This document shows, in pieces, positions 11,354 to 62,486 of a DNA stretch of 64,000 nt. Origin of the DNA: a virus. Both the position numbers and the translations under genes were made by a program. Where the stretch lies: the UHGV virus genome UHGV-0084588, one strand, 5' to 3'. The notes below the pieces were generated by a model. It was given only the letters and a program-made list of their open reading frames with translations. It was not told where the DNA came from and searched no databases. The first letter of the stretch is position 1, and the number at the start of each line of letters is the position of its first letter.

Positions 11354-11379
11354 TCAGATATATATTACCTAGGGGAGAG
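11354..11379 (+). promoter_or_regulatory. conserved 26-bp promoter-like motif (copy 1) with downstream hairpin
   Basis: TCAGATATATATTACCTAGGGGAGAG, one of four near-identical copies; followed by a hairpin and about 70 nt upstream of the ATG at 11426. Confidence 0.5.
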
Positions 11380-15261: not shown

Positions 15262-15287
15262 TCAGATATATATTACCTAGGTGAGAG
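15262..15287 (+). promoter_or_regulatory. conserved 26-bp promoter-like motif (copy 2) with downstream hairpin
   Basis: TCAGATATATATTACCTAGGTGAGAG followed by the perfect hairpin GTGAGAGT-tcagtt-ACTCTCAC; 70 nt upstream of the ATG at 15332. Confidence 0.5.
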
Positions 15288-35619: not shown

Positions 35620-35658
35620 TAAATAAAATGGATACCCCTCCCCATTACAGGGAGGGGT
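35620..35658 (-). terminator. hairpin between tailspike genes
   Basis: ACCCCTCC-ccattacag-GGAGGGGT, followed on the minus strand by a U-rich stretch and the RBS of the next gene. Confidence 0.5.
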
Positions 35659-45550: not shown

Positions 45551-45593
45551 CCTCCTACCCTCTAAGAGGGTAGGAGTAGCACGTTTTTTTTTT
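45551..45593 (+). terminator. rho-independent terminator
   Basis: CTCCTACCCTC-taag-AGGGTAGGAG hairpin followed by a T-run of about 11 nt. Confidence 0.8.
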
Positions 45594-47007: not shown

Positions 47008-47033
47008 TCAGATATATATTACTTAAGTGAATA
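47008..47033 (+). promoter_or_regulatory. conserved 26-bp promoter-like motif (copy 3) with downstream hairpin
   Basis: TCAGATATATATTACTTAAGTGAATA followed by an 11-bp stem (TAGGGACTGAA/TTCAGTCCCTA); unlike the other copies it lies about 390 nt upstream of the next ATG. Confidence 0.45.
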
Positions 47034-51303: not shown

Positions 51304-51336
51304 GGTGGGGGTAAACCCCCACCTTTTATTTTTTGT
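51304..51336 (+). terminator. rho-independent terminator
   Basis: GGTGGGGG-taaa-CCCCCACC followed by TTTTATTTTTTG. Confidence 0.8.
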
Positions 51337-51357: not shown

Positions 51358-51383
51358 TCAGATATATATTACTTAGGTGAGAG
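51358..51383 (+). promoter_or_regulatory. conserved 26-bp promoter-like motif (copy 4) with downstream hairpin
   Basis: TCAGATATATATTACTTAGGTGAGAG followed by GAGTTA-tgat-TAACTC; 72 nt upstream of the ATG at 51430. Confidence 0.5.
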
Positions 51384-53642: not shown

Positions 53643-53670
53643 GGCCCCGGAATGTCCGGGGTCCTTTTTT
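53643..53670 (+). terminator. rho-independent terminator
   Basis: GCCCCGG-aatgt-CCGGGGT followed by CCTTTTTT. Confidence 0.75.
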
Positions 53671-53700
53671 ACGACATGTTTTACCTAAAGGAGTATTAAA

Positions 53701-54180: not shown

Positions 54181-54213
54181 GCCCGGCCCCGTTTATTCGG
54201 GGCTTCTTTTTTT
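54181..54213 (+). terminator. rho-independent terminator
   Basis: GCCCCG-tttattc-GGGGC followed by a T-run. Confidence 0.75.
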
Positions 54214-54847: not shown

Positions 54848-54890
54848 GGGAGAACCTTCGGGTTCTCCCTTCTCTGTTTTTTTTTCTTTT
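54848..54890 (+). terminator. rho-independent terminator
   Basis: GGGAGAACC-ttcg-GGTTCTCCC followed by a long T-tract. Confidence 0.8.
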
Positions 54891-54921
54891 TACACCACAC
54901 TCCGTCTTTATGGAGGTGGGT

Positions 54922-57426
54922 ATGCTAAAAGTTGAACGCATTATACTCAAAGGTTTTACGGGGATGGGATTACATGAAATTGAAACTTTCGATTTCACTA
55001 TCCAGTCTCCAACAACAATTATCCTGGGTGGGAACGGTTGCGGGAAAACCAGTCTACTGTCTGTATTCTTACCCTTAGCACCGGCTAAAACTGAATTCAG
55101 AGACGGCGGTTCTTACACGAACTACTGTTTAGTTGGTGATCAACGGTATCGATTCAAAGTTGCCCGTAAAGGTAACTCTTTGGTTTGCGATATTGAAAAT
55201 CTGACCACGGGAGCAAAGATCGTCGAGCAAGGTAATGCGAAGGTCTACAACTCCCGTGTTGAAGAAATCACGGGTATTACGAAAGAAATTAAAGAACTAT
55301 TAAATGGTGATGTTTTGTTAACCGATGCGGGAACCGAATTACGCCGTAAATGGTTTTACCGTTTAAGTACCTCTGATCTCACATACGCGTTAGGGTTTTA
55401 TCAACGTTTGCGTAAAAACCTTACCGCCTTAAATGGGGGTATTGAAATCACCAGTCGCAAGATTGCCGAATTACGGACGCGTGTTATTGAGAACGAGGAA
55501 GAACGACAACAATTAGCAACGAGATTAAAAGGTCTGGAATCGGATTTACGTGAACTGAACCGAGAAATCGAACAGTTGCCAGGATTAAATCGTGCTGTCA
55601 CGATCGAAACAATCCAAGCGTTATTAAACGGTTTGGGTCCAACCATCGACGCAATATTACAACATCGTGGTGGGTTGCCTACTGATGAACAGATACTGGT
55701 CGCCCGACAAAATGAAGCGACAGCCCGCGAAGCCGTCGTTTCTACCGAAACAGAGGTATCGATGTTGAATAAAGATTTATCGCTATTGATGGATGAGTCA
55801 ACACGACAAGACTACCTGATGCGGAATCACGAAGGTCTCAAGAATACACTGGCACGTTTACGTGAGTTACTTACCAAGTGGGACACCGAACATCTCTTTC
55901 CAGGTTTATTTAACGATAACGTTAATTTAGACCAACTTCGTGCGGCTACCGATGCGCGTGTTTGGGGACAACGGTTGGGGACAACACTGGACGCTATTCA
56001 TTCAACCGAGAAACTCAATGTTTTGGAAGAACGTCTTCTGGTGATGGATCAAAAAACCGCAGGATTACGGGATAGACTCCAGCGAGTGGAGAACGTTTTA
56101 CAGAATTTAAATCACGAGCGTAACCACTACTTAGAAACGGCAGAAGTGGATTGTCCGCAGTGTCGGTTTAAGTTTCGGCCAGGTGTTACGCGTTCTTTAC
56201 CTGAACTCGAGTCATCGATTCGTGGACAACAACAGCAGCGGACGGAACTGCAAACGCAGTTAGAGACTTTATTACGCGATCGTGTTGAATTAGAATCTGA
56301 TGTAACTTATATGCGGCAGGTTCGTGAGATTGTACTGACGTATTCAAAAGACCCTGTATTGAGCATGTTCTTTAAGCGTTTGCAAGAACGTAACGTTTTC
56401 ACAGAGTCTCGCGAGCAGTTCGGGAGTCTATGCGCAGCGTTTGACGGTGAGTTGTACTCTGCTATTGAGTACCATGAAACCCGACAACGGTTAGTGAAAG
56501 CGGAAAAAGAATGGCAGGATGCCGTGGCGGCCGTTGGTAACGTCGATGGTGCTTTACAACAAAAGATCGCCTTCCAACAGTCACGGTTAGGTAAAGCCAC
56601 AGAGATGCTCTCAATGCGTCGTAGAGAGCACGAACTGGCTAACACGACACTTACCTATCTAGTGAATGTTAAACGTGCTGTAGATGATTTCAGTGCGTTA
56701 TTCGAACGGTTAGAGAGTGATGTTAAGGTTACTTTGACAAATACGGTCGTCGAGGAGCTCTTACGAGTGCGGGAAGGGAAGCTGGATGCTTTTACAACTG
56801 CACGCGAACGTTATCGTCAGATGGAAAACGAATTGAATCAGCTCAACAGTTTGGAGCGCGAACTTACAGACTTACAAGCCCAACAGTTCAATAACAAACT
56901 GATGATTCAAGCCTTCTCGCCAGAAAAGGGTGTACTTAGAAAGTATTTTTACAACGCTATCGTTAGAATCACAGAGTTAATGACGCGTTATATCGAACAG
57001 GTCTGGACGTACCCCATGCGCGTTATGCCCTGTGATCTCACTGACGGTGATTTGGATTATACTTTTCCTGTCCAGCTAAAAACGCACCCTGAGCCTGTTC
57101 CTGACGTGCGTAAAGGGTCTAAGGCACAGCGTGCTATATTTAATCTGATGTTCAGACTGACTGCGTACAAAGCGTTGAAGTTGCATCAGTTTCCGTTGCT
57201 TTTGGATGAGCCTTCGGAAGGCATGGACGAGGAGCACCGTAATAACCTGGTCGGCTTTATTAAAACGTTAGCAAACTCGGGAGAATTTTCACAGCTGTTG
57301 GTAGTCTCCCACGAAGCCGAGGTTCATTCTAAACTTAATGAAGCATCGTACTGTGTCATCGAACCGGAAGGAGTGACATTGCCTGCGGTGTATAACGAAG
57401 GAGTAAAAATTGTTTATGCAAACTGA
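54922..57426 (+). CDS. SMC/Rad50/RecN-like ABC-type ATPase with long coiled-coil
   Basis: Start at the ATG at 54922 (GGAGGTGGG RBS). N-terminal Walker A ILGGNGCGKTSLLSVF; about 550 aa of Glu/Leu/Arg/Gln-rich coiled-coil with a central CPQC hook-like motif; C-terminal Walker B LLLDEPSEGMD and VVSHEAEV. Confidence 0.65.
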   Translation: MLKVERIILKGFTGMGLHEIETFDFTIQSPTTIILGGNGCGKTSLLSVFLPLAPAKTEFRDGGSYTNYCLVGDQRYRFKVARKGNSLVCDIENLTTGAKIVEQGNAKVYNSRVEEITGITKEIKELLNGDVLLTDAGTELRRKWFYRLSTSDLTYALGFYQRLRKNLTALNGGIEITSRKIAELRTRVIENEEERQQLATRLKGLESDLRELNREIEQLPGLNRAVTIETIQALLNGLGPTIDAILQHRGGLPTDEQILVARQNEATAREAVVSTETEVSMLNKDLSLLMDESTRQDYLMRNHEGLKNTLARLRELLTKWDTEHLFPGLFNDNVNLDQLRAATDARVWGQRLGTTLDAIHSTEKLNVLEERLLVMDQKTAGLRDRLQRVENVLQNLNHERNHYLETAEVDCPQCRFKFRPGVTRSLPELESSIRGQQQQRTELQTQLETLLRDRVELESDVTYMRQVREIVLTYSKDPVLSMFFKRLQERNVFTESREQFGSLCAAFDGELYSAIEYHETRQRLVKAEKEWQDAVAAVGNVDGALQQKIAFQQSRLGKATEMLSMRRREHELANTTLTYLVNVKRAVDDFSALFERLESDVKVTLTNTVVEELLRVREGKLDAFTTARERYRQMENELNQLNSLERELTDLQAQQFNNKLMIQAFSPEKGVLRKYFYNAIVRITELMTRYIEQVWTYPMRVMPCDLTDGDLDYTFPVQLKTHPEPVPDVRKGSKAQRAIFNLMFRLTAYKALKLHQFPLLLDEPSEGMDEEHRNNLVGFIKTLANSGEFSQLLVVSHEAEVHSKLNEASYCVIEPEGVTLPAVYNEGVKIVYAN

Positions 57427-57595
57427 TTGGTTCCGTCGTTTTATGGACGCGGCGGGGTTTGGTTTCATGTCCATTCTAGCGGTTCTTTATGTCATGTTTT
57501 GCGTGGTGATGATTTTATGGGTAGTTTCATCTTATCTGATTAAACTATCGTGGGGTTCAATTTGGCGTCAACGTGAATGCGAATGGCGGAATTAG
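57410..57595 (+). CDS. small membrane protein
   Basis: 61 aa with a hydrophobic core (FGFMSILAVLYVMFCVVMILWVVSSYLI); TTG at 57410 or ATG at 57416 as start; overlaps the end of the ATPase gene. Confidence 0.45.
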   Translation: MFMQTDWFRRFMDAAGFGFMSILAVLYVMFCVVMILWVVSSYLIKLSWGSIWRQRECEWRN

Positions 57596-57606
57596 GAGAA
57601 GGGAAT

Positions 57607-57705
57607 ATGGTTGAAGGGGTTCTGTTAACACTTGGTGCGATGTGGTTAATCGGTAAAGGTTTAAACTTGCTGGTTAAACAACACAGATGGGCGTTTGAAG
57701 ATTAA
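57607..57705 (+). CDS. small membrane peptide (32 aa)
   Basis: AGGAGAAGGG RBS then ATG; MVEGVLLTLGAMWLIGKGLNLLVKQHRWAFED; under 60 aa, so not in the ORF track. Confidence 0.35.
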   Translation: MVEGVLLTLGAMWLIGKGLNLLVKQHRWAFED

Positions 57706-57762
57706 ACGCCCAAATAATCCGGAAAATACCCTCCGGCGTGAGGGTATTACTAGGAGCAGAAA

Positions 57763-57891
57763 ATGACCTCGATAAACACTACGAATGTAGCGATATCCGC
57801 ATTATACGATGCGGAACTTTCATGGGGTGGATTAATAATCACCACGGCCATATTAGCCGCAGCGGCATTCGTCATCGCGCGTTGGTTTTAA
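57763..57891 (+). CDS. small membrane peptide (42 aa)
   Basis: TAGGAGCAG RBS then ATG; MTSINTTNVAISALYDAELSWGGLIITTAILAAAAFVIARWF; preferred over the overlapping 57738..57941 track ORF, which has no RBS. Confidence 0.35.
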   Translation: MTSINTTNVAISALYDAELSWGGLIITTAILAAAAFVIARWF

Positions 57892-57922
57892 TTTTACTTT
57901 TTTGCGTCTCTAAGGTTTGCAA

Positions 57923-58366
57923 ATGGAAATTTATTTGTTGAACGCATCTTCTAAAGTCGGCGAACGACAAGCTGCCGATTTACTCAAACTACACTACCGT
58001 TACTTGGACCACCAGGCTACATTACTAAAAATCAAAACGTCGGTACCGAAATTAAAAGCTCGACAACTGATCGAAGGTAACTGCATAGTTCTGGTGTATC
58101 AGGATGATGTCGCGGTAGGATACTGTAGTTATCGGAATCGTAACGGTTCACTTAAGATACGTTCGGTATACGTGCTCCCAGACTATCGTCAGCGGGGTGT
58201 AATGAAAGAGATTTTCAAAGCAATTGCCGCCGATGAAGTTTTCGGTGAAATTGTTACTGGCATGTATGCGAAATGTAAAGAAGCAAAAGAGTATTTCATC
58301 CGACGCGGTTATCAGGCGGTTTACTCACACGATCGTGAGTGGGTCGATTTTAGCAAAACATTCTAA
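57923..58366 (+). CDS. GNAT-family acetyltransferase-like protein
   Basis: SVYVLPDYRQRGVMKEIFKAI resembles GNAT motif A (acetyl-CoA binding, Q/R-x-x-G-x-G/A); 148 aa from the ATG at 57923. Confidence 0.45.
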   Translation: MEIYLLNASSKVGERQAADLLKLHYRYLDHQATLLKIKTSVPKLKARQLIEGNCIVLVYQDDVAVGYCSYRNRNGSLKIRSVYVLPDYRQRGVMKEIFKAIAADEVFGEIVTGMYAKCKEAKEYFIRRGYQAVYSHDREWVDFSKTF

Positions 58367-58432
58367 AACAATAAAAGCTCTCTTGGCGTACCTCACTATG
58401 AGTGTGAGAAATTTACGTCAGGAGAGCTAATT

Positions 58433-58678
58433 ATGTTAAAATCGTACGGAGTGGGTGGTTTGGATACGAGTATTTGTTGGAAAGAATACGAACGTGCAAA
58501 AGCGTTCTTACAACATCCCAATGTAGGGACAATAGGTAAGGTCTGTTTCGGCAAACCTACGTTGACAGCTTGTATCCAAGGGGCTTTAGGAACGTTGCCA
58601 CCCGAAACACATTTCGAGCCTGAGGAGAATACGAATGTTCACAGAGAACCCATCAATTTACGGCATACCGTTGAATGA
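58433..58678 (+). CDS. hypothetical protein
   Basis: 81-aa ORF; GGAGAG RBS. Confidence 0.5.
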   Translation: MLKSYGVGGLDTSICWKEYERAKAFLQHPNVGTIGKVCFGKPTLTACIQGALGTLPPETHFEPEENTNVHREPINLRHTVE

Positions 58679-59003
58679 AATTGACATTCTACAAATTTGT
58701 TATCAGTGCGACGACTTTGGTAACACGCAGGTAACAGAGCTAGTTAAGCTTTTAGGTTACTTACCTGAAATCGAGCTACCTTTTGTTAAACCCAGCTTGG
58801 TTCGTCGTGCATCGTGTCGCGAAGCTTATTTGTTGTGGAAACACAATATTTCAGTAGAGAAGGTCTGGGACCGCATGAACGATCATCAGTTCCGTGAACA
58901 GGTTGTGCACACGCTCAATTTGGCACTGACTATGCAACGGCTGGGCTTACAACACGAAGGTTTAGAAGCGGCGGTCAAACAATGGATTACAAAAAATCGC
59001 TAA
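58635..59003 (+). CDS. hypothetical protein
   Basis: 122-aa ORF; GAGGAG RBS; overlaps the upstream gene. Confidence 0.55.
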   Translation: MFTENPSIYGIPLNEIDILQICYQCDDFGNTQVTELVKLLGYLPEIELPFVKPSLVRRASCREAYLLWKHNISVEKVWDRMNDHQFREQVVHTLNLALTMQRLGLQHEGLEAAVKQWITKNR

Positions 59004-59090
59004 TGGGTAAAACATATATCGCTATACTTGTCGAGCTATCAATCGGCGGTACACGTTTTAATACTACACATCAACTACGGCCGATTCGTT

Positions 59091-59588
59091 ATGTTAACGG
59101 TACGTAAAGAATCTGAAATTGGTAACGATCTTTTTAATGCGCCCGAAGACTATAAAGTCGTTACCATTAACTGTGTAGGAGCAATGGGTCGCGGTATTGC
59201 GCTGGCGTGCCGTGAACGCTACCCCAACCTTTATCAAGATTACCGTAAGCGGTGTCGCGAAGACGAAATTAAGATTGGAAGTGTTTACGTTTACCCTGAT
59301 GAAAAGTGCATCTTGCTCCCCACGAAAACACATTGGCGTTTAAAGTCCCAGGTTTCTTATGTTACTGCGGGCATTACCGCATTAGCAGATTGTATTGAAG
59401 AACTGGATACCAGCGTTGCTATCCCTCCACTGGGAATGGCAAATGGGTGGTTAGATTCCTGGGAAAGACAAGAAATCTTCTTGTGGCTTTACAAAAAACT
59501 TGAACCGAGGAGGCAACGCTACACGTTATACTTACCCGATAAGCTGTACCGAGAAGCAGAGTCATTAATTCCAAACTCTTTTAAATAG
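59091..59588 (+). CDS. macrodomain protein (TARG1/OARD1-like ADP-ribose hydrolase)
   Basis: From the ATG at 59091: GNDLFNAPEDYKVVTINCVGAMGRGIALACRERY...AIPPLGMANGWLDSWERQ parallels human TARG1 ([34 protein letters not shown]...SMPRIGCGLDRLQWENV) as recalled; no clear RBS, so the start is uncertain. Confidence 0.55.
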   Translation: MLTVRKESEIGNDLFNAPEDYKVVTINCVGAMGRGIALACRERYPNLYQDYRKRCREDEIKIGSVYVYPDEKCILLPTKTHWRLKSQVSYVTAGITALADCIEELDTSVAIPPLGMANGWLDSWERQEIFLWLYKKLEPRRQRYTLYLPDKLYREAESLIPNSFK

Positions 59589-59688
59589 ATATTATCATTA
59601 GGGCACACAACAAAGGAGTATTAGCTGTCCGCGCCGTCATTTCGTCTTACGGAATACGGAAATGTATAAATCCAACTGGAGAAACAAA

Positions 59689-60387
59689 ATGTTTCGTATC
59701 TTCTTTCTTTTACTGGTAACACTTTTCGCGTTTAACGCACAGGCGTCAACGTCAACGCCGCAAACTAAACATCAGCGTGAATTTACACAAATCCAACATC
59801 GGTTCGAAAAGGTCAGTCCGTTAATTGTGGAAATCTCACGAAAGCAAGGCGTTGATCCTAAGCTGATGATTACGCTGATTTATCGCGAATCGCGTTTTGA
59901 TCCCAAGGCTTACAACAAAAGCACACGAGCGCACAGCCTAGTACAGATGCTTCCAAGTACCAAGCGCAATCTGCTAAAGCTTTATGGAAAAGAATTAGGT
60001 CTTAGTCAGAACGCTGATTTGTATAATCCGCGTAACGCTGTTTTGCTGGCTACCGCGTATGTTAAACATCTTGAGAAGGGGTTAACCAAACGACTCAAAC
60101 GCAAGCCCACCATGGCTGAAGTTGCGTTAGCTTACCACTGGGGTGAAAGTGGCGCTCACACGCGAATCAAAAGCAAATCTCGAGCAGCACAACGAGAAAT
60201 GGCAGGCTTTATGAAAGACGCCGCGTTCTATAGCGCGAAAATCGATGTGCCTGTTGTTGTGGGCTCGGCCCCACGTCAGCTTGCGTTTGCGAAGAAAACA
60301 CCACGTCAGATTCAATTGGCGGAAGTTAGTAAAATTTGGGATACGATAAACACGAGTTTTCCAATCAATAGAGGAGTTACCCTTTGA
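59689..60387 (+). CDS. secreted lytic transglycosylase (SLT domain)
   Basis: Start at the ATG at 59689: signal peptide MFRIFFLLLVTLFAFNAQA, then ESRFDPKAYNKSTRAHSLVQMLPST matching the SLT catalytic motif (E-S...GLMQ-x-MP-x-T). Confidence 0.65.
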   Translation: MFRIFFLLLVTLFAFNAQASTSTPQTKHQREFTQIQHRFEKVSPLIVEISRKQGVDPKLMITLIYRESRFDPKAYNKSTRAHSLVQMLPSTKRNLLKLYGKELGLSQNADLYNPRNAVLLATAYVKHLEKGLTKRLKRKPTMAEVALAYHWGESGAHTRIKSKSRAAQREMAGFMKDAAFYSAKIDVPVVVGSAPRQLAFAKKTPRQIQLAEVSKIWDTINTSFPINRGVTL

Positions 60388-60893: not shown

Positions 60894-60898
60894 TCTCT

Positions 60899-60937
60899 AC
60901 CCCTTACCCTTTACGGAGTAAGGGGTAATTTTATTTT
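60899..60937 (+). terminator. rho-independent terminator
   Basis: CCCCTTAC-cctttacgga-GTAAGGGG followed by TAATTTTATTTT. Confidence 0.7.
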
Positions 60938-60959: not shown

Positions 60960-61439
60960 ATGATAAAATTCATTTGGCGTTACCCAACACGTTTTTGGTT
61001 TGTGGTGCTTGAACTGTGTATGGTTCTTGTAGCGGTTACTTTTATCGATGCACCTGCCTCACAGTTGACCATTTTCTGTCTTTTCGTGGCAGTTCCTGTA
61101 TGGGTTATTGCGAAGGCTATTAAGTTCGCCATGGTGAGTTGGGCGAATTATACGTGTCCGTATAAACCTAGACAAATCATGAACTGGTTAATGTTTATTG
61201 AAGAACGTTTACCGGCGCAACGTAAATTACTGGGCTGGTCGTCAATGTTAGATATTGCGCTAGAAACCAATGCAAAGTTCCCCGGCGCGAAAAACCCGTA
61301 TTTGCTGTTGGCGGTAATTGTTGCGCAACAAAAACTGGTAGGCGATCGTTGGTTGCCAGAAGAAGCGAAAGCGTATATCCGTAAACATCCAAAAGCTTTT
61401 TACTCGGTAGGTCAATGGCGTAACTTACCACTATTTTAA
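60960..61439 (+). CDS. membrane protein
   Basis: 159 aa; two N-terminal hydrophobic helices (FWFVVLELCMVLVAVTFI; IFCLFVAVPVWVIAKAI). Confidence 0.6.
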   Translation: MIKFIWRYPTRFWFVVLELCMVLVAVTFIDAPASQLTIFCLFVAVPVWVIAKAIKFAMVSWANYTCPYKPRQIMNWLMFIEERLPAQRKLLGWSSMLDIALETNAKFPGAKNPYLLLAVIVAQQKLVGDRWLPEEAKAYIRKHPKAFYSVGQWRNLPLF

Positions 61440-62431: not shown

Positions 62432-62468
62432 ACCCCTACTCCTCCGGGAGTAGGGTTAATTCTTTTTC
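62432..62468 (+). terminator. rho-independent terminator
   Basis: CCCTACTC-ctccgg-GAGTAGGG followed by TTAATTCTTTTT. Confidence 0.8.
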
Positions 62469-62486
62469 CATCTTAGGAGTATTAAA

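Follow-up and report, generated by a model that had tools for sequence, protein, structure and literature searches.

Three consecutive small open reading frames (ORFs), referred to as ORF1, ORF2 and ORF3, lie on the + strand between positions 57410 and 57891 of a 64,000-nucleotide (nt) stretch of the virus genome UHGV-0084588; this entire 64-kb stretch is termed the window. A reading made from the sequence alone had drawn attention to three tiny consecutive ORFs of 61, 32 and 42 amino acids (aa), each described as led by its own Shine-Dalgarno sequence and as encoding a single predicted transmembrane (TM) helix. The ORFs are present as described, and AGGAG is found 6–8 nt upstream of each start. 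They are assigned below to families A, B and D of a cassette of small genes. The ORFs and their ribosome-binding sites (RBS) are the following.

57410 (TTG)..57595, + strand: ORF1, family A, 61 aa; ORF and comparative evidence
57398–57403, + strand: Shine-Dalgarno sequence of ORF1, AAGGAG, 6 nt upstream of the TTG
57607..57705, + strand: ORF2, family B, 32 aa, ATG start; ORF and comparative evidence
57594–57598, + strand: Shine-Dalgarno sequence of ORF2, AGGAG, 8 nt upstream of the ATG and overlapping the TAG stop codon of ORF1
57763..57891, + strand: ORF3, family D, 42 aa, ATG start; ORF and comparative evidence
57752–57756, + strand: Shine-Dalgarno sequence of ORF3, AGGAG, 6 nt upstream of the ATG

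A six-frame scan of the window for ORFs of 28–75 codons with a strong Shine-Dalgarno sequence and a 19-residue segment with a summed Hessa ΔG of 3 kcal/mol or less returned four small, RBS-led hydrophobic ORFs, three of which are ORF1–3; the mean in 20 shuffles was 0.4. The observation thus stands, at a level far above chance. The sole other ORF of this kind, at 2789–2986 on the + strand, encodes 65 aa with a signal-peptide-like N-terminus (MKIWLPILVFILIAGALASA) and has a strong Shine-Dalgarno sequence. An ORF track with a 60-aa cut-off would list only the 61-aa ORF1 and a 67-aa ORF at 57738..57941, consistent with the two tiny ORFs having been missing from the track that accompanied the sequence-only reading.

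Coding evidence and start codons

ORF1 follows a gene for an SbcC-like protein. A search for near-identical DNA among GenBank phages found none, and relatives were reached via this protein. The window belongs to a jumbo phage with Erwinia phage Asesino and Salmonella phage SPN3US among its relatives.

54910..57426, + strand: SbcC/SMC-like ATPase gene, 838 aa; Pfam SMC_N

The close relatives, from IMG/VR and from assemblies, comprise L008, with a 99% identical SbcC, L003 and L004 (87% identical), and the haplotypes L022–L029 from gut or sewage-type metagenomes and sequencing runs. The ratio of non-synonymous to synonymous differences (pN/pS) was summed over all pairs of eight haplotypes for ORF1 and ORF2 and seven for ORF3, all from the window's own clade. 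The values are 0.37 for ORF1, 0.28 for ORF2 and 0.26 for ORF3, with zero stop-codon cells in any of the three frames, whereas the two alternative frames over the same nucleotides yield 0.58–4.4 and 11–185 stop-codon cells. Pairwise ω for ORF1–3 ranges from 0.08 to 0.38 at saturating dS, and dN against the relatives with an 87% identical SbcC is 0.24–0.32. The only length change within an ORF is an in-frame 10-codon N-terminal duplication in the ORF3 orthologs of L028 (3656–3814) and L029 (1346–1504), which are 52 aa long; the duplicated codons encode the polar N-terminal segment. Conservation analysis, which the sequence-only reading had named as a possible source of refutation, has revealed frame-specific purifying selection on each ORF (pN/pS 0.26–0.37). 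ORF1–3 are almost certainly genuine protein-coding genes.

An alternative in-frame ATG at 57416 would shorten the ORF1 product to 59 aa. L003 and L004 have ACG in place of this ATG and retain the TTG, from which the homologue in phage Asesino is annotated too; TTG 57410 is thus the conserved ORF1 start. The ORF1 Shine-Dalgarno sequence is also kept in L003/L004, phiEaH2 and SPAsTU. Longer ORF2 forms of 40 or 42 aa (from ATG 57577 or 57583) were considered, the 40-aa form (P0009) having been called by the NCBI pipeline in a Shigella assembly. They were rejected because a 1-nt deletion in L008 puts the extension out of frame and because the Shine-Dalgarno sequence precedes ATG 57607, which is accordingly taken as the start of ORF2.

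The longer ORF that the track reports across ORF3 was also examined.

57738..57941, + strand: 67-aa track ORF, in frame 2 relative to ORF3; not a gene

Its pN/pS is 2.0, and in-frame stop codons in the L003-type haplotypes split it into pieces of 28–32 aa; it was rejected as a gene. The suspicion of the sequence-only reading that this ORF is less plausible than the 42-aa ORF is borne out, the latter having a pN/pS of 0.26, no stop codons and homology to the annotated SPN3US gp189.

Homologues of the three proteins

ORF1 matches PHROG 16515 (hmmscan E = 2.6e-4), with residues 1–61 aligned to positions 1–61 of the 62-position profile, and tblastn locates phiEaH2 and Stratton at the syntenic site with an E value of 0.02. 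By position and sequence ORF1 is the homologue of SPN3US gp187, Asesino gp208 and phiEaH2 gp111. All of them overlap the end of an SbcC-like gene, are 61–66 aa long, and have a single long hydrophobic helix and an LY-x-x-FC core in common. However, family A members from outside the window's clade are merely 23–33% identical to ORF1, and the window protein starts at TTG. SPN3US gp187 was noted previously as a TMHMM-predicted membrane protein (Thomas et al. 2016, PMC5105663). A 67-aa protein of Salmonella phage SPFM12 (P0047, SPFM12_00092) contains gp187 segments in scrambled order and is probably an assembly or annotation artefact.

ORF2 matches PHROG 13448 with an E value of 1.4e-8 (residues 1–31 on profile positions 6–38 of 43), and BLASTP aligns it with an unannotated SPN3US ORF with an E value of 2e-7. 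The members of this PHROG (Parshik gp200, ChrisDB gp081, SPFM17_00186 and the unannotated SPN3US and Asesino ORFs) are, like ORF2, 32–46 aa long and encoded by the second cassette gene, and they share with it the motif G-K/R-x-x-x-W-(I/V/L)-(I/V/L)-K...(G)WAF/KKGA. The ORF2 version of the window's clade differs in being the shortest (32 aa) and in having lost the overlap with a downstream family-C gene. In the GenBank records of SPN3US (JN641803; L002 5698–5802) and Asesino (KX397364; L001 5695–5805) the family-B gene is present and conserved yet unannotated.

For ORF3 alone, tblastn produced no match and the PHROG search none; its homology to SPN3US gp189 surfaced only through synteny and pairwise or profile comparison, with 39% identity over 42 of 43 residues and a BLASTP E value of 1e-4. 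Like ORF3, SPN3US gp189 and SPAsTU MLDJOKPK_00250 are 42–43 aa long, with a polar N-terminus of the form MT-x-(I/V)-N-x-x-N...Y...W and a C-terminal TM segment ending in W(L)F. The arrangement differs in that gp189 is fourth in its cassette and overlaps its neighbours, whereas ORF3 occupies third place, behind a hairpin.

Profile searches of 5.8 billion proteins returned 33, 17 and 16 clusters for ORF1, ORF2 and ORF3, respectively, and an exhaustive hidden Markov model (HMM) search of 1.84 billion representatives returned 8 for family A. Every ORF2 cluster that bears an organism name belongs to this phage lineage or to enterobacterial assemblies, and all three families are, as far as these searches reach, confined to the lineage of SPN3US-like phages, from which all named hits come. 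Identical or near-identical small proteins occur in assemblies labelled Shigella flexneri, Escherichia coli and Salmonella enterica, which points to an enterobacterial host. Searches with ORF1–3 drew a blank in Pfam and PADLOC, and what NCBIfam and the PDB sequence search returned was noise far below threshold; an Rfam search of the region gave nothing meaningful. PHROGs 16515 and 13448 are both of unknown function, and none of the families A–F has an assigned one. The sequence-only reading had offered roles as holin or antiholin, in superinfection exclusion or in inhibition of host membrane proteins; for none of these was a family of known function matched in Pfam, PHROGs, NCBIfam, PADLOC or the PDB.

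A cassette of small genes between SbcC and GNAT

The SbcC-like protein of the window is 70% identical to that of Erskinevirus (Asesino gp207, phiEaH2), 58% identical to SPN3US gp186 (Seoulvirus), and 44–54% identical to those of further Erwinia jumbo phages; identity to phiKZ, Goslar and other nucleus-forming phages is ~22–25%. The cassette was surveyed in relatives down to 52% SbcC identity. The gene order SbcC-A-B, followed by C, D, E and F in varying combination and then by a GNAT acetyltransferase gene, was found in Asesino, phiEaH2, SPN3US, SPAsTU, Parshik, the ChrisDB- and Caitlin-type loci and IMG/VR contigs. Adjacent cassette genes overlap by 1–23 nt almost throughout. The families and the closing gene in the window are listed below.

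Family A: 49–66 aa; SPN3US gp187, Asesino gp208, phiEaH2 gp111
Family B: 32–46 aa; Parshik gp200, ChrisDB gp081, unannotated in the SPN3US and Asesino records
Family C: about 65–71 aa from the aligned start, with two hydrophobic stretches; gp188, gp209
Family D: 42–43 aa; SPN3US gp189
Family E: 33–35 aa, ending in ALTQGWF; Asesino gp210
Family F: 76–92 aa; basic, soluble
57923..58366, + strand: GNAT acetyltransferase gene, 31 nt after ORF3; Pfam Acetyltransf_1/7/10

ORF1–3 are a reduced, minimal (A-B-D) version of this cassette, which comprises up to six small genes, most of them for membrane proteins, and in SPN3US-like jumbo phages (Seoulvirus, Erskinevirus, Machinavirus and allies) invariably sits between the SbcC-like and GNAT genes. 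Families C, E and F were not found anywhere in the window, nor were paralogues of A–F elsewhere in it, and family D is absent from Erskinevirus. Families D and E both end in ...W(L)F (in E as ...ALTQGWF) and were considered as possible paralogues; this is not supported, the two being not detectably related (hhalign probability 1%). In every genus examined with recognisable A/B homologues, the cassette ends at the GNAT gene. The start of this gene in the window is ATG 57923 (MEIYLLNA...) and not the TTG at 57917 of the mechanical ORF, the equivalent ATG being used in L003/L004 and in the gene calls on L022–L029. Two Derbicusvirus phages have unrelated small hydrophobic TM ORFs at the cassette position. 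The cassette was rejected as a general feature of the Chimalliviridae, as Goslar, the phiKZ-like OMKO1, Ea35-70 and Eowyn have other, ordinary genes after SbcC. This lineage-wide cassette had escaped the sequence-only reading, as had the overlap of ORF1 with the SbcC-like gene and the prior mention of SPN3US gp187 (PMC5105663).

The small genes diverge faster than their flanks: ORF1–3 share 50–67% amino acid identity with the relatives whose SbcC is 87% identical, compared with 84–87% for SbcC and GNAT. Over positions 54910–59500 the identity between the window and L008 is patchy, ranging from 85 to 100% per 100-nt bin, with ORF1 at 100% and the most divergent bin (85%) in ORF2, which suggests recombination mosaicism inside the cassette.

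Peptide anatomy and membrane character

Hydropathy and flanking charges were obtained with an in-house script (Hessa scale, 19-mers) and not with a trained TM predictor. The best 19-mer of ORF1 scores −3.4 kcal/mol (residues 21–39), within a TM segment spanning about residues 17–43, and that of ORF3 scores −0.65 kcal/mol (residues 21–39) and lies at the C-terminus. The best 19-mer of ORF2 reaches merely +2.7 kcal/mol, with Lys17 and Asn20 inside the segment. The single TM helix attributed to each peptide thus holds firmly for ORF1 and ORF3, and for ORF2 it is borderline. AlphaFold2 yields one continuous helix for ORF1 (residues 3–57, modelled with the family alignment) and one for ORF3 (residues 2–41), with predicted local distance difference test (pLDDT) scores of 84 and 86, respectively; the ORF1 model is not a hairpin. 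ORF1 and ORF3 are very probably inserted in the membrane, and for ORF2 insertion is the somewhat better bet.

ORF1 has two Arg residues on the N-terminal side of the TM segment and a basic C-terminal tail (four Lys/Arg and two Glu) containing R-x-C-E-W-R, a motif conserved in Seoulvirus, phiEaH2 and the window's clade and not in Asesino. Distant family A members have only 3–8 uncharged N-terminal residues and a strongly basic tail (net charge +3 to +7), which indicates an N-out/C-in topology. ORF2 has an acidic N-terminus, a conserved Lys/Arg at position 16–17 in the middle of the helix, which accounts for the marginal hydrophobicity of the segment, and a conserved basic juxtamembrane tail, K-x-x-(G/R)-W-A-F. 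The segment would be a TM helix in which the lysine snorkels, or else an interfacial helix. In ORF3 the N-terminal 20 residues are polar, acidic and rich in Thr, Asn, Ser and Ala, with zero Lys/Arg, and the C-terminal TM segment reaches the last residues (...ARWF). Ten columns are invariant among the 11 ORF3 family sequences (M1, T2, N5, N8, A13, Y15, W21, I26, A35 and F42), and they are concentrated in the polar part.

Gene overlaps, hairpins and promoter-like motifs

ORF1 starts inside the SbcC-like gene, with an overlap of 17 nt; in six other loci the junction ranges from an overlap of 17 nt to a gap of 3 nt (−17 to +3). The ORF1 Shine-Dalgarno sequence sits within the conserved C-terminal codons ...N-E-G-V... 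of SbcC (AAC GAA GGA GTA). Together with the position of the ORF1 stop codon inside the ORF2 Shine-Dalgarno sequence, this indicates that SbcC, ORF1 and ORF2 are arranged for coupled translation. SPN3US gp186, the SbcC counterpart, is essential (PMC5105663). Two hairpins lie further downstream.

57688..57712, + strand: hairpin 1, 9-bp stem TGGGCGTTT/AAACGCCCA, spanning the ORF2 stop codon
57725..57748, + strand: hairpin 2, AATACCCTC-CGGCGT-GAGGGTATT, between ORF2 and ORF3, just upstream of the ORF3 Shine-Dalgarno sequence

The two hairpins combined give z = −4.6. Hairpin 1 is specific to the window and probably not a conserved element, its stem being degraded in L008 and L003/L004. At hairpin 2 a CCCTC...GAGGG-type stem is found in every haplotype of the clade, with differing loops and stem extensions; this was judged by eye for each haplotype, because automatic alignment put the L003-type hairpins out of register and made covariation counts unreliable. 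A U-rich stretch follows on the 3' side (UAUUAC, or UGUUUUAC in L003). The same hairpin type occurs at the gene ends at 35636 (35636–35656) and 45558 (45558–45570), making three where 0.13 were expected. Hairpin 2 lies 3 nt from the ORF3 Shine-Dalgarno sequence and 14 nt from the ATG, so that ORF3 must be read through from upstream. The hairpin would then act as a leaky terminator or as a stabilising or processing stem-loop. GC-rich hairpins with T-runs behind them are present in most intergenic gaps of the co-directional 51.3–62.5 kb block, at 51304–51334, 53643–53672, 54185–54213, 54848–54885, 60898–60935 and 62434–62470, so that terminator-like elements are densely placed between individual genes.

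The motif TCAGATATATATTACYTAGGTGAGAG is perfectly repeated on the + strand at 11358–11368, 15266–15276, 47012–47022 and 51362–51372, each copy being intergenic and upstream of a + strand gene block. These copies are likely early promoters for the virion RNA polymerase, in line with the AT-rich motifs that have been described at early promoters of jumbo phages carrying such a polymerase (PMC7598289). The cassette, 6 kb further downstream than the last copy (51362), may belong to the early or middle temporal class.

Downstream muralytic and membrane-protein genes

Two genes downstream of the cassette bear on a possible lysis function.

59662..60387, + strand: SLT-domain transglycosylase, 241 aa, candidate exported endolysin; Sec-type signal or signal-anchor-release (SAR)-like N-terminus (MYKSNWRNKMFRIFFLLLVTLFAFNAQA followed by ST)
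60960..61439, + strand: 159-aa protein with two N-terminal TM segments and a ~100-aa C-terminal (cytoplasmic) domain, two genes after the SLT gene

The SLT gene is the only muralytic gene near ORF1–3. The 159-aa protein has a weak match to PHROG 20030 (unknown function) and no Pfam match, and it is a better holin candidate than any of ORF1–3.

Discussion

The three peptides may be accessory, fast-evolving inner-membrane factors that act on the host envelope in the replicative phase, by superinfection exclusion or by modulation of host membrane proteins, and not lysis machinery. This assignment, drawn from context and evolutionary behaviour, is put forward tentatively. It is suggested by the gain and loss of cassette members between genera, by their quick evolution, and by their place among SbcC, GNAT and macro-domain genes (identified by Pfam and PHROG matches) and not among lysis genes. 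In the proposed mechanism, ribosomes ending SbcC translation would re-initiate at the ORF1 TTG and ORF2 translation would follow 11 nt later, so that ORF1 and ORF2 would be made from the same transcript as a recombination nuclease subunit; ORF3, behind the leaky terminator-like hairpin, would be co-transcribed with the GNAT gene. The peptides would insert in the host inner membrane as bitopic helices, likely N-out/C-in given their acidic or uncharged N-termini and basic C-terminal sides, and a partner would dock on the short conserved tails, RxCEWR in ORF1 and KxxG/RWAF in ORF2, that they would present to the cytoplasm. The explanation as a whole, from real A-B-D cassette genes through this mechanism to an accessory membrane role, is plausible at somewhat less than even odds.

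Several points weigh against it. The case for the functional class draws solely on genomic context and on how the genes evolve. Holins and antiholins, too, typically evolve fast and show gene turnover. The topology derives from a simple charge count, and the marginally hydrophobic segment of ORF2 could be an interfacial helix. Several terminator-like hairpins separate the putative early promoter from the cassette, and the middle and late promoters of these phages are not recognisable from sequence (PMC7598289). In addition, all genera with recognisable A/B homologues (SbcC at least 52% identical) have retained family A, which argues for a more fixed role than an accessory one, at least for ORF1.

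In the main rival explanation, which is unlikely, ORF1, perhaps with ORF2, is a membrane tether or small subunit of the phage SbcC/SbcD nuclease: translational coupling would fix its ratio to SbcC, and through its conserved RxCEWR tail, bound to the ATPase on the cytoplasmic side, the complex would be kept at the inner membrane. The 17-nt overlap and the placement of the ORF1 Shine-Dalgarno sequence in the NEGV codons are consistent with this, as is the finding that each SPN3US-like genus checked has a small TM ORF adjoining or overlapping the stop codon of SbcC (+3 to −17 nt). Family A itself is found in every genus checked with an SbcC at least 52% identical, and Phobos (Derbicusvirus) also has a small TM ORF, unrelated in sequence, overlapping the SbcC stop codon. 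The idea was raised for SPN3US gp187 by analogy with T4 gp47.1 (Thomas et al. 2016, PMC5105663), proposed, as cited there, as the membrane anchor of gp46/47; T4 has a 46-aa predicted membrane ORF overlapping gene 47 (SbcD) by 4 nt. However, overlapping starts are usual throughout the cassette (B-C, C-D, D-E), and the coupling is therefore not specific to SbcC. The T4 anchor role is itself only a suggestion, and homology between family A and gp47.1 was rejected (hhalign probability 0.4%). Moreover, Chimalliviridae that have SbcC (Goslar, the phiKZ-like OMKO1, Ea35-70, Eowyn) lack such an ORF after it, and SPN3US and Asesino replicate their DNA in a protein-shelled nucleus (PMC13282480), which fits poorly with a membrane-anchored recombination nuclease.

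A lysis-timing function, with ORF1–3 as holin, antiholin or pinholin-like proteins serving the signal-peptide-bearing SLT transglycosylase 1.8 kb downstream, is improbable. In its favour are the small size of the peptides, their TM helices and the charged tail of ORF1, the diversity and fast evolution of holins, and the presence on the same strand of an SLT-domain protein with a Sec-type or SAR-like N-terminus, since exported endolysins need only a membrane-depolarising partner. Holins of any class combine at least one TM domain with a short, highly charged C-terminal tail, a feature that is not specific; ORF1 is a loose fit, ORF2 is marginal and ORF3 has essentially no such tail. The context is less accommodating: of the options offered by the sequence-only reading, the holin/antiholin role is the one least favoured by it. 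SbcC-like and GNAT genes flank ORF1–3; the SLT gene comes four genes further downstream, separated by GNAT, two unknown genes and a macro-domain gene, and ORF1 and ORF2 are chained to a DNA-metabolism gene and not to an endolysin. In phiKZ the lysis cassette (spanins gp141/141.1, class III holin gp142, regulator gp143 and SLT endolysin gp144) is contiguous and its holin has a large cytoplasmic domain (PMC12894885); nothing alike is found at ORF1–3, and the protein at 60960..61439 is the better holin candidate. Pinholins have two TM domains, whereas each of the three peptides has one hydrophobic segment and the ORF1 and ORF3 models are single uninterrupted helices. A spanin role fits no better. 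ORF1–3 have no lipobox and are hence not o- or u-spanins; ORF3 is without any Cys, the Cys residues of ORF1 are only in the middle of the TM segment (VMFC, no lipobox context) and in the tail, and all three peptides are below 62 aa with no soluble domain. There are zero matches to lysis PHROGs, the gene content of the cassette varies between genera, and the early-promoter-like motif at 51362 lies upstream of the block.

The trio might also supply phage-made parts of the early phage infection (EPI) vesicle, the lipid compartment of nucleus-forming phages, or of the transition from it to the protein nucleus; this is very unlikely. SPN3US and Asesino have been found experimentally to form nuclei, and EPI vesicles derive from the inner membrane, anchored early phage proteins being sensed by host JukA (PMC13282480); the cassette lies in a co-directional block downstream of the early-promoter-like motif. 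It is absent, however, from the other Chimalliviridae examined and thus cannot be a core part of EPI biology, and the vesicle forms at injection, before phage gene expression. That ORF1–3 are chance open frames in an intergenic spacer, or that ORF1 alone is real, can be dismissed as exceedingly improbable: the ORFs are very short, ORF2 and ORF3 fall under usual gene-calling thresholds and ORF2 has no annotation in the SPN3US and Asesino GenBank records, but selection is frame-specific with zero stop codons in the haplotypes, the Shine-Dalgarno sequences are conserved, homologues occur in at least five genera, and the genes were called independently across many assemblies.

Homologues of ORF1–3 had already been deposited as hypothetical proteins, PHROGs includes two of the families, and gp187 is already mentioned in the literature. 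The trio is nothing out of the ordinary for SPN3US-like phages, although it is poorly annotated in them, and does not overturn current understanding. The annotation gains are a 32-aa family-B protein under purifying selection, absent from the records of the type phages SPN3US and Asesino, and the recognition that the longer overlapping ORF reported by simple ORF tracks is spurious. A coherent cassette, specific to the lineage and variable in content, is made up of the small membrane genes that follow SbcC. No part of jumbo-phage genomes is less well understood than the small genes, whose function a 2026 review lists as an open question (PMC13282480). The practical value lies in better annotation and in a defined set of three to six tiny genes in a lineage that includes the genetically tractable SPN3US.

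Comparison with known systems

The phiKZ lysis cassette resembles the window in coming from a related nucleus-forming phage and in combining membrane proteins with an SLT-type muralytic enzyme. It differs from ORF1–3 in its contiguity with the endolysin gene, the large cytoplasmic domain of its holin, and spanins with a lipobox or coiled coil, all of which ORF1–3 are without.

T4 Imm and Sp are small, non-essential inner-membrane superinfection-exclusion proteins that are expressed before the late genes, and they are of the class favoured here for ORF1–3. Imm has two TM domains, and both T4 proteins are larger (83 and 97 aa). Searches of PHROGs and Pfam gave ORF1–3 no match indicating homology to either.

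T4 gp47.1 resembles ORF1 in arrangement only, each being a tiny hydrophobic ORF translationally coupled to an SbcCD-type nuclease gene. It lies upstream of SbcD rather than downstream of SbcC, and it has two hydrophobic stretches where ORF1 has one. A bolder version of the tether, and an improbable one, is that ORF1, with ORF2 as partner and made by ribosomes leaving the essential SbcC-like gene, physically links the SbcCD-type nuclease to a lipid membrane, be it the inner membrane or the EPI vesicle derived from it. If so, DNA ends would be processed at a membrane-anchored station, which might for example destroy host DNA or handle the injected genome before the protein nucleus forms, and the T4 47.1–47 pair would represent a convergent arrangement.

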